From NCBI GenBank assembly GCA_036253055.1, contig GCA_036253055.1_4124.1: a DNA stretch of 64,000 nucleotides; one strand, written 5' to 3'. Position numbers and translations under genes: made by a program. Below are positions 42,406-42,476 of this stretch, piece after piece (the first letter of the stretch is position 1; every line of letters starts with the position of its first letter). The notes beneath the pieces are model-generated. The model was given only the letters and a program-made list of their open reading frames with translations, had not been told where the DNA came from and did no database searches. This DNA is from a phage.

Positions 42406-42476
42406 GATCAAGATTTGATCAGAATTATACGCCTTATGCTAAATTGATCCAGTACTTTTTTGATCATTTATTGATC
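42406..42476. repeat. Cluster of five TTGATC(N) direct repeats (five GATC sites in 71 bp)
   Basis: GATC at 42406, 42417, 42446, 42462, 42473, each in TTGATC context. Confidence 0.5.

Follow-up and report, generated by a model that had tools for sequence, protein, structure and literature searches.

A GATC cluster on a predicted early promoter in the terminal repeat of 121Q-like jumbo coliphages is probably a methylation- or protein-read switch

Introduction

Dam-sensitive promoters with a GATC site in a core hexamer are known from the IS10 transposase (pIN), from phage P1 (cre) and from dnaA (P2). Their host, E. coli, has both Dam and SeqA; the latter sequesters oriC and acts as a transcription factor at the lambda promoter pR. 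Clusters of GATC sites are typical of oriC and of P1 oriR, and at P1 pac, which is built of TGATCA/G hexamers, methylation controls cleavage. Regarding sequence-specific regulators, rrnB P1 is activated by Fis from an upstream site at -71, and the 15-mer consensus of Fis is GNNYAWWWWWTRNNC. In vivo, SeqA prefers adjacent GATC sites that are ~10 or 20 bp apart, with less than 50 bp between them (PMC2912659).

Here we describe a locus in a jumbo coliphage where five GATC sites fall within 71 bp, on a predicted promoter. Like IS10 pIN, P1 cre and dnaA P2, it has a GATC inside a predicted sigma-70-type -35 element and belongs to a dam+ E. coli host, and methylation state could tell parental from new DNA. 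Unlike those promoters, it carries four more GATC sites, with two 11-bp pairs flanking the core promoter, and it belongs to the terminal repeat of a jumbo phage that is virulent and has a Dam-family enzyme of its own. As in SeqA targets, the sites are about one helical turn apart and within the 50-bp limit (PMC2912659), beside a promoter as at lambda pR. Unlike oriC, where SeqA also binds, the cluster is no origin, has no DnaA boxes and is dispensable, and it has TT flanks, which SeqA is not known to require. With P1 pac it shares a hexamer family, whose copies fall into two blocks and span less than 100 bp, but it has 2+1+2 sites instead of 4+3, it sits 11 kb from the genome end of a phage with a T4-type terminase, and some relatives are without it; the likeness to pac is only superficial. 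Finally, the locus resembles rrnB P1 in having an A/T-centred 15-mer with G and C at +/-7 upstream of a promoter with a 16-bp spacer, although this candidate site is centred near -51 rather than -71 and the Fis consensus is degenerate.

Results

Phage and genome setting

The locus is part of a 64-kb stretch of phage DNA, which was analysed as a whole and which we call the window. Positions 41500-43500 of the window are 97.9% identical to Escherichia phage 121Q, its closest complete genome, and 91-95% identical to ~30 further Asteriusvirus jumbo coliphages with genomes of 350-385 kb. Judged by these identities, the window is from a 121Q-like Asteriusvirus, a jumbo coliphage with E. coli as its host. 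In vB_Ec-M-J, the homologous site falls within an annotated direct terminal repeat of 21.5 kb. When the boundaries of that repeat are mapped across, the terminal repeat occupies ~33.6-53.8 kb of the window, which puts the physical end ~11.3 kb and the inner repeat boundary ~8.8 kb away from the GATC cluster. A terminal repeat of 20,993 bp has been determined for fEgEco12 by PhageTerm and confirmed by restriction digestion (PMC13070987). We located the homologous site at 11.15-11.48 kb of the fEgEco12 genome.

The terminal repeat is dense in short minus-strand genes, nearly each of which has its own consensus sigma-70 promoter. The record of phage EC.P1 stops 9 bp past the cluster. We rejected a genome end at this point as an assembly artefact, because the last 127 nt are the same as the first 127 nt of the circular record. 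A search of the entire window against Rfam at gathering thresholds gave no match.

Five GATC sites are clustered in a GATC-poor genome

A preliminary description of the window had pointed to five TTGATC repeats (five GATC sites) within 71 bp, in the contexts TTGATCA, TTGATCC and TTGATCG. We confirmed all of this: every repeat reads TTGATC on the plus strand, three of them as TTGATCA and one each as TTGATCC and TTGATCG.

42406-42476, no strand assigned: cluster of five GATC sites, TTGATC on the plus strand and GATCAAW in the transcribed (minus-strand) sense

The GATC sites, numbered 1 to 5, start at 42406, 42417, 42446, 42462 and 42473, with start-to-start spacings of 11, 29, 16 and 11 bp. No open reading frame of at least 40 aa covers the cluster on either strand of the window. 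A plus-strand CDS auto-annotated across it in JP4 and E9.1 was treated as spurious, since the 121Q clade shows no equivalent of it.

This is the densest GATC grouping in the window. Assuming uniform placement, the probability of finding five GATC sites in 71 bp anywhere in 64 kb is ~0.002; in 300 third-order Markov simulations, the count always stayed below five. For genome-wide counts we assembled the complete 121Q genome (348.5 kb), in which the homologue of the cluster is at 146698-146768. GATC is depleted in 121Q (620 sites, 1.78 per kb, observed/expected 0.52), being its second most avoided 4-bp palindrome. The homologue of the cluster is the sole place in the genome with at least four GATC sites per 100 bp, and every other 71-bp span has three or fewer. 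Within the terminal repeat, the density is 5.0 GATC per kb in coding DNA versus 1.5 per kb in non-coding DNA (cluster excluded), and the cluster provides five of the 15 non-coding GATC sites of the repeat. A density no higher than the genome-wide intergenic background would have refuted the preliminary description, and the counts do not refute it: five sites per 71 bp have a P of 0.00015 at the non-coding density, and of 0.014 at the overall density of the repeat. As for the flanks, only 10.6% of the GATC sites of 121Q have a 5' TT on the plus strand, so five out of five in one orientation (~1e-5) is itself non-random.

The cluster belongs to an accessory cassette

The cluster had been assigned to the ~330-nt leader of a TraR-like gene. 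This assignment proved imprecise. The 329-nt gap upstream of that gene (42243-42571) is not a plain leader, as it holds two predicted promoters and a conserved 48-aa gene, gp293. The cluster is on the predicted promoter for gp293, and gp293 stands between the cluster and the TraR-like gene. The elements of the region, besides the second promoter, are as follows:

41985-42242, minus strand: gene for an 85-aa C4 zinc-finger protein of the TraR/DksA family (Pfam PF01258, E 2e-11, above the cut-off)
42241-42251, no strand assigned: left copy of the 11-bp direct repeat ATTATTTTAAC, from a repeat search
42242-42388, minus strand: micro-gene gp293, 48 aa, with a TTG start, AAAGG 12 nt upstream and a stop that overlaps the start of the TraR-like gene (TAATG)
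42487-42538, minus strand: class-2 initial transcribed segment, with the core CCCATAGGGTGC at 42499-42510; 100% identical between the two clades compared below
42539-42567, minus strand: predicted class-2 promoter (TTGACA, 17 nt, CATAAT, TG before the -10), with 11 of 12 consensus positions; kept in all relatives
42571-42581, no strand assigned: right copy of the 11-bp direct repeat ATTATTTTAAC, from a repeat search and from comparison with ph0011 and phAPEC6

The two repeat copies flank a 330-bp accessory cassette (42242-42571). In phages ph0011 and phAPEC6 the cassette is precisely missing and one ATTATTTTAAC copy is left, through which the upstream 65-aa gene is joined straight to the TraR-like gene. 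By this comparison, the cassette is a dispensable unit made up of two predicted promoters and gp293. Read along the minus strand, the class-2 promoter and its leader of ~50 nt come before the second promoter, followed by gp293 and the TraR-like gene. The sequence of this ~50-nt leader has 100% identity among all relatives. None of 5,426 E. coli genomes contained a match to the cassette, and we rejected a host origin on these grounds. When IMG/VR was queried with the conserved class-2 core, 121Q was the only phage found to have the cassette.

The window contains eight copies of the class-2 element, all of them inside the terminal repeat, and the statement that the cluster adjoins such a repeated element holds. 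Each copy consists of a strong promoter with CCCAYAGGGTGC ~35 nt later, and at six other loci a class-1 promoter lies ~50-55 nt beyond the class-2 element. Class-1 promoters follow a common plan: AAAAAGTAC, TTGCAA or TTGACA, 16 nt, TATAAT, GTTTTACATC, a GGGGAGAA...TTCTCCCC hairpin, a ribosome-binding site and the gene. Transcripts that start at the predicted class-2 promoter of the cassette would run across the GATC cluster. A paralogue of this class-2 unit, at 48.5 kb, has a terminator stem, GGGGATC/GATCCCC, at its end.

When the 121Q and PBECO4 clades are compared, codons 2-32 of gp293 have a pN of 0.28 and a pS of 0.72, with a DNA identity of just 62% (first 31 codons), and the other two frames of the region are full of stops. 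The purifying selection and the stop-filled alternative frames therefore identify gp293 as a real gene. It matches PHROG 38664 over its full length and is predicted to be translationally coupled to the TraR/DksA-like gene. The product of the latter, which also matches the NCBIfam DksA/TraR models at scores under their cut-offs, presumably acts on the host RNA polymerase. We also inspected 21 other TraR-like loci from T4-like and other jumbo phages. None had more than three GATC sites in the 400 nt upstream, and several had zero GATC in 3.2 kb. We therefore rejected the cluster as a general trait of TraR-like genes and attribute it to the cassette.

A second predicted promoter carries GATC in each functional zone

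At the place where other tandem loci have their class-1 promoter, the cassette has the GATC cluster, arranged as AAAAAAGTAC-TGGATC-16 nt-TATAAT from 42461 down to 42424. Its A-tract, GTAC, -35, 16-nt spacer and TATAAT are in exact register with 24 class-1 promoters, and the predicted start site is at ~42416-42420. The elements of this promoter are:

42406-42420, no strand assigned: sites 1 and 2 as the downstream GATC pair, GATCAAATCTTGATC, which is a perfect dyad (GATCAA-N3-TTGATC) and covers the predicted start
42424-42429, minus strand: -10 hexamer TATAAT; AGAATTATAC is invariant in both clades though the flanks diverge
42446-42451, minus strand: -35 hexamer TGGATC, holding GATC site 3; TTGATC in the PBECO4 clade, with the site invariant in 15 genomes
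42462-42476, no strand assigned: sites 4 and 5 as the upstream GATC pair, with the minus-strand sequence GATCAATAAATGATC, in the UP-element zone at ~-44 to -58 relative to the predicted start

Each functional zone of this predicted promoter (UP-element zone, -35 and start site) has GATC. As in the described Dam-sensitive promoters, one GATC falls within a core hexamer, 16 nt 5' of the invariant TATAAT, and in the 121Q genome no other class-1-like promoter has a GATC in its -35 slot. In the upstream pair, both GATCs and their 11-bp spacing are invariant in the 15 genomes compared, with a spacer of A and T only; the version of the PBECO4 clade is GATCAAAAAATGATC. The downstream pair provides a 7-bp stem (TGATCAA/TTGATCA) at the predicted 5' end of the RNA, where class-1 mRNAs have their 5' hairpin.

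Scored with a position weight matrix of the class-1 family, the promoter ranks among the top 33 of ~64,000 positions (top 0.05%), yet its 0.4 bits fall under every class-1 member (minimum 4.9, median 46), because its -35 and its initial transcribed consensus differ. With the hexamers masked, its flanks score poorly. The class-1 traits that are present are the A-tract, GTAC, the 16-nt spacer, TATAAT and the 5' stem; those absent are the TTGCAA/TTGACA -35 and GTTTTACATC. The TGGATC of the 121Q clade agrees with TTGACA at three of six positions. Among the closest relatives of this arrangement are the class-2/class-1 tandem promoters of the same phage, found at six or more other terminal-repeat loci with the same order and spacing. 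Compared with them, only the copy in the cassette has GATC in the UP zone, in the -35 and in the 5' stem, and it has a degenerate -35 and no GTTTTACATC start region.

GATC number and pairing are conserved

We compared the cluster in 15 genomes, nine of the 121Q clade and six of the PBECO4 clade. All nine genomes of the former have five GATC sites and all six of the latter have four; sites 3, 4 and 5 are invariant in the 15 genomes, though the conservation statistics are weak because these represent just two to three independent lineages. The downstream pair (sites 1 and 2) is present in 9/9 genomes of the 121Q clade and is missing in the PBECO4 clade, where it corresponds to a hyper-diverged patch. 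The PBECO4 clade has an extra GATC between sites 3 and 4 that produces a new 11-bp pair, GATCAATACTTGATC, over the -35. Given this turnover of sites, the conserved property is the presence of GATC-N7-GATC pairs over promoter elements, not the individual positions, and the comparison argues that selection acts on how many GATC sites there are and how they are paired, not on where exactly each one lies. Between sites 4 and 3, the A-tract ranges from 4 to 7 nt, which leaves site 3 without a fixed phase to the upstream pair; the spacing within pairs is constant.

The 121Q genome, 91% of which is covered by ORFs, has only four GATC-N7-GATC (11-bp) pairs, and all four are non-coding. Its 12-bp GATC pairs are also four, all of them coding. 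One of the 11-bp pairs, at 215908 of 121Q, is located upstream of gene 467, with a terminator on one side and a conserved TAAATACCC on the other. Both of its GATCs and their spacing are the same in PBECO4, in fEgEco12 and in phAPEC6, which is cassette-less, while 15 of the 45 columns around the pair vary, including most of the spacer (P = 0.027). This second locus reads TTGATC-N5-TTGATC in PBECO4, phAPEC6 and fEgEco12, and TCGATC...ATGATC in 121Q. The TT flanks have changed here and the GATC cores have been kept, which points to GATC itself as the selected unit.

Candidate writers, readers and cofactors

The phage has a candidate writer of its own. The 121Q protein gp417 matches the Pfam Dam family (PF05869, E 7e-32) and scores 91.5 bits against the NCBIfam model for phage N6-adenine methyltransferases (TIGR01712), just under its cut-off of 97; we assume its GATC specificity from the family. 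The publications on phAPEC6 and Sharanji also list an N6-adenine methyltransferase. As to a reader, the two conserved 11-bp pairs agree with the spacing that SeqA prefers (PMC2912659).

We screened positions 42100-42700 for the DnaA box TTWTNCACA, for oriC-type 13-mers and for IHF cores, and found none. No iterons beyond the GATC motifs were found, nor was an FNR motif. The OxyR half-site ATAGNTNNNANCTAT is absent from the whole 64-kb window, and the OxyR form of a Dam/OxyR or Dam/Lrp phase-variation switch (agn43, pap, Mu mom) was discarded on that account. In the preliminary description the cluster had been linked to methylation-sensitive control regions and origins. The first half of this proposal agrees with the geometry of a Dam/SeqA region, given a GATC in the -35, two 11-bp pairs, an E. 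coli host and a phage Dam-family gene. The origin half is disfavoured by the lack of initiator motifs nearby and by the absence of the segment from ph0011 and phAPEC6.

Discussion

The cluster is probably a methylation- or protein-read switch on an early promoter, since it is the only such cluster in an otherwise GATC-avoiding genome. In the broadest terms, we find it likely that it is a promoter-associated array of putative protein-binding sites. The best specific reading, to which we give a probability of roughly 40%, is a Dam/SeqA-sensitive early promoter of the sigma-70 type. In such a promoter, the sites would be methylated by the host Dam or by the Dam-family gp417. Injected DNA would be fully methylated and newly replicated DNA would be hemimethylated or unmethylated, and hemimethylated GATC pairs one helical turn apart would be a preferred substrate of the host SeqA. 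The output of the second promoter would then depend on how far the phage DNA has been replicated, through SeqA bound to UP zone, -35 and start site, through N6-methyladenine acting directly in the -35, or through both. Bound SeqA would also block transcription arriving from the class-2 promoter. The likeliest effect would be to limit the expression of gp293 and the TraR-like gene to parental, pre-replicative genomes. We infer the start sites, the methylation of the five GATCs, the binding of SeqA and the direction of the effect; what the sequences show is the cluster and its uniqueness, a promoter-like architecture, the 11-bp pairing, sites that are conserved and turned over, a dispensable cassette and a Dam-family gene in the phage.

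All five sites have TT on the same strand, and this counts against Dam and SeqA. To our knowledge, TT flanks are required by neither, and their constancy hints at a more specific reader. One could argue, then, that the pairs are operators for a sequence-specific dimeric protein, such as the host nucleoid factor Fis or a phage early or middle protein, with TTGATC as the half-site and GATCAA-N3-TTGATC as the dyad, through which the promoter would be activated or repressed and for which methylation would be irrelevant or only modulatory. Conservation does extend beyond GATC, all five sites being TTGATC/GATCAAW when 10.6% would be expected per site. Each clade has a pair that is a perfect 15-bp palindrome (GATCAAATCTTGATC for 121Q, GATCAATACTTGATC for PBECO4), and pairs lie over the start site or over the -35, as operators classically do. 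Moreover, GATC-W7-GATC fits the Fis consensus, of which 42462-42476 is the sole match within +/-300 bp, but this consensus is so degenerate that it has 16 strand-counted matches in the window. The second locus cuts both ways: it keeps TTGATC-N5-TTGATC in PBECO4, phAPEC6 and fEgEco12, but in 121Q it has both GATC cores without the TT flanks. The strong avoidance of GATC and the phage Dam gene make a reading that is blind to methylation less economical. We regard such operators, the main rival reading, as somewhat unlikely.

It is more doubtful still that the sites act at the RNA level or have no function, i.e. that the TGATCA palindromes form hairpins, with the pair at the start site replacing the 5' stability stem-loop of class-1 transcripts and the rest being a leftover of duplication or drift. 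Class-1 transcripts do open with the conserved GGGGAGAA...TTCTCCCC hairpin, the terminator stem of the 48.5-kb paralogue contains GATC, the cassette is dispensable, and the predicted fold of the leader has both TGATCA-based stems. This fold, however, is no better than those of shuffled sequences (z = -0.59), a result for which we also dropped a riboswitch or attenuator in the leader, and the PBECO4 clade still has four GATC sites without a 5' hairpin. The upstream pair and the GATC of the -35 sit 5' of the predicted start of the nearer promoter. Hairpins, besides, need no GATC in a genome that avoids it, and the exclusively intergenic 11-bp pairs and the pair with a variable spacer at the second locus would be left unexplained. 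A cis site for replication or packaging, either an unwinding element as in oriC and P1 oriR or a terminase site like P1 pac, is very improbable. Its appeal lies in the hexamers (three TGATCA, one TGATCC and one TGATCG), which resemble TGATCA/G of P1 pac, and in a location within the terminal repeat, beside a strong promoter and with no overlapping ORF. Yet ph0011 and phAPEC6 are viable with the whole cassette precisely missing, the site is far from both the physical end and the inner repeat boundary, gene 4 of 121Q is annotated as a T4 gp17-like large terminase and not as PacA/PacB, and the AT content is ordinary for local intergenic DNA. We rejected the origin and pac readings because the cassette is naturally deleted in relatives, lies far from the ends and has no initiator motifs nearby.

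Going beyond this promoter, Asteriusviruses might sense the state of replication epigenetically through 11-bp GATC pairs, and so have a methylation-based developmental timer, an extension that we regard as a long shot. GATC would have been cleared from the genome except at the places of its use, the phage Dam would write the mark, and SeqA or a phage protein would read the pairs, switching genes between parental and replicated DNA. The places concerned would be the promoter of gp293 and the TraR-like gene, and the conserved pair before a TAAATA-type promoter upstream of gene 467.

Published accounts of fEgEco12, CBB, phAPEC6 and Sharanji describe terminal repeats and methyltransferases, but neither the cluster nor the promoters. 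The locus is a probable further case of a Dam-readable promoter, unusual in that it belongs to a virulent jumbo phage whose genome is purged of GATC and encodes its own Dam-family enzyme. The cluster, on a single promoter, offers a small and well-defined handle on how Rak2/121Q-group jumbo phages time their early genes, with natural controls in the relatives that lack the cassette and in the clade with rearranged sites. If the promoter is not controlled by methylation or SeqA, the dyads would mark the operator of another regulator; if it is, Dam-based regulation would reach beyond temperate phages and transposons, into a virulent jumbo phage that has a Dam of its own.

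A family of promoter elements in the terminal repeat

The class-2 element, a strong sigma-70-type promoter followed by a conserved transcribed segment, is present in eight copies in the window, all of them inside the ~21-kb terminal direct repeat.

Class-2 copies in the window
35356, minus sense
37277, minus sense
40144, minus sense
42499, minus sense
44163, minus sense
50934, minus sense
48565, plus sense
52689, plus sense

Each copy carries a strong promoter and, ~35 nt further on, the invariant core (A/G)CCCAYAGGGTGC. The -35 of one subfamily sits within a terminator-like hairpin, GGGATTGAC-TCCG-GTCAGTCCC.

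An inverted paralogue forms a stand-alone unit and is a candidate small RNA.

Inverted class-2 unit
48508-48645, plus strand: stand-alone class-2 paralogue of ~105 nt

From 5' to 3', this unit is composed of TTGACA, 17 nt, CATAAT, the conserved CCCACAGGGTGC segment and a terminator, GGGGATC-GTTT-GATCCCC, and the gene at 48642-48863 is oriented convergently to it. Its fold is better than those of shuffled sequences (z = -2.3). The unit also contains three GATC sites in 52 bp and has no match in Rfam.

Also found in the early promoters is AGTACT, with 256 copies in the window and 903 in 121Q, the closest complete genome (348.5 kb), ~8-fold above expectation; for GTAC, the observed/expected ratio was 1.4. 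AGTACT is spread over the whole window, with its peak density at 33600-53800. In early promoters it keeps to set positions, immediately 5' of the -35 and within the spacer preceding TATAAT, and this placement suggests that it is a recognition motif for some factor.

GATC sites within and outside the terminal repeat

Between the 121Q and PBECO4 clades, a patch of ~110 nt (window ~42290-42425) is only ~55-62% identical, with both flanks ~100% identical. The patch spans the N-terminal two thirds of gp293 together with sites 1 and 2 of the five-site GATC cluster upstream of this gene and looks like a local recombinational replacement.

In the terminal repeat of 121Q (135385-155554), GATC sites lie mostly within coding DNA. 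At 121Q 135375-135394, ~70 bp outside the mapped repeat end, a tandem duplication of GTGATCAGTA generates a 10-bp GATC pair; in the homologous position of the window, at about 53859, GTGATCAGTA is single-copy. Around this boundary in the window, an array of CGTCTAGC-like units with an 8-bp period is found at 52888-53039, just inside the repeat end (about 53789), and tandem repeats of ~190 bp are located just outside it, at 54200-55800, where the GC skew flips sign.

We also found a third GATC-N7-GATC pair, upstream of gene 467.

GATC pair upstream of gene 467
121Q 215908-215922: GATC-N7-GATC, between a terminator and the conserved TAAATACCC

Both GATCs and their 11-bp spacing are unchanged in four of four phages, with a variable spacer sequence, and the conserved TAAATACCC may be a T4-late-like promoter.

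Avoidance of short palindromes

GATC purging is stronger still in T4-like relatives carrying a TraR-like gene: several such loci from 170-kb T4-like phages were entirely free of GATC over 3.2 kb. Regarding GCGC, we counted none in the 64-kb window and none in the 348.5 kb of 121Q, vs ~153 expected in the latter; across the window and the whole 121Q genome, no other 4-bp palindrome is avoided nearly as strongly. The absence of GCGC points to selective pressure from a nuclease that cuts this site, either host-borne or encoded by the phage itself.
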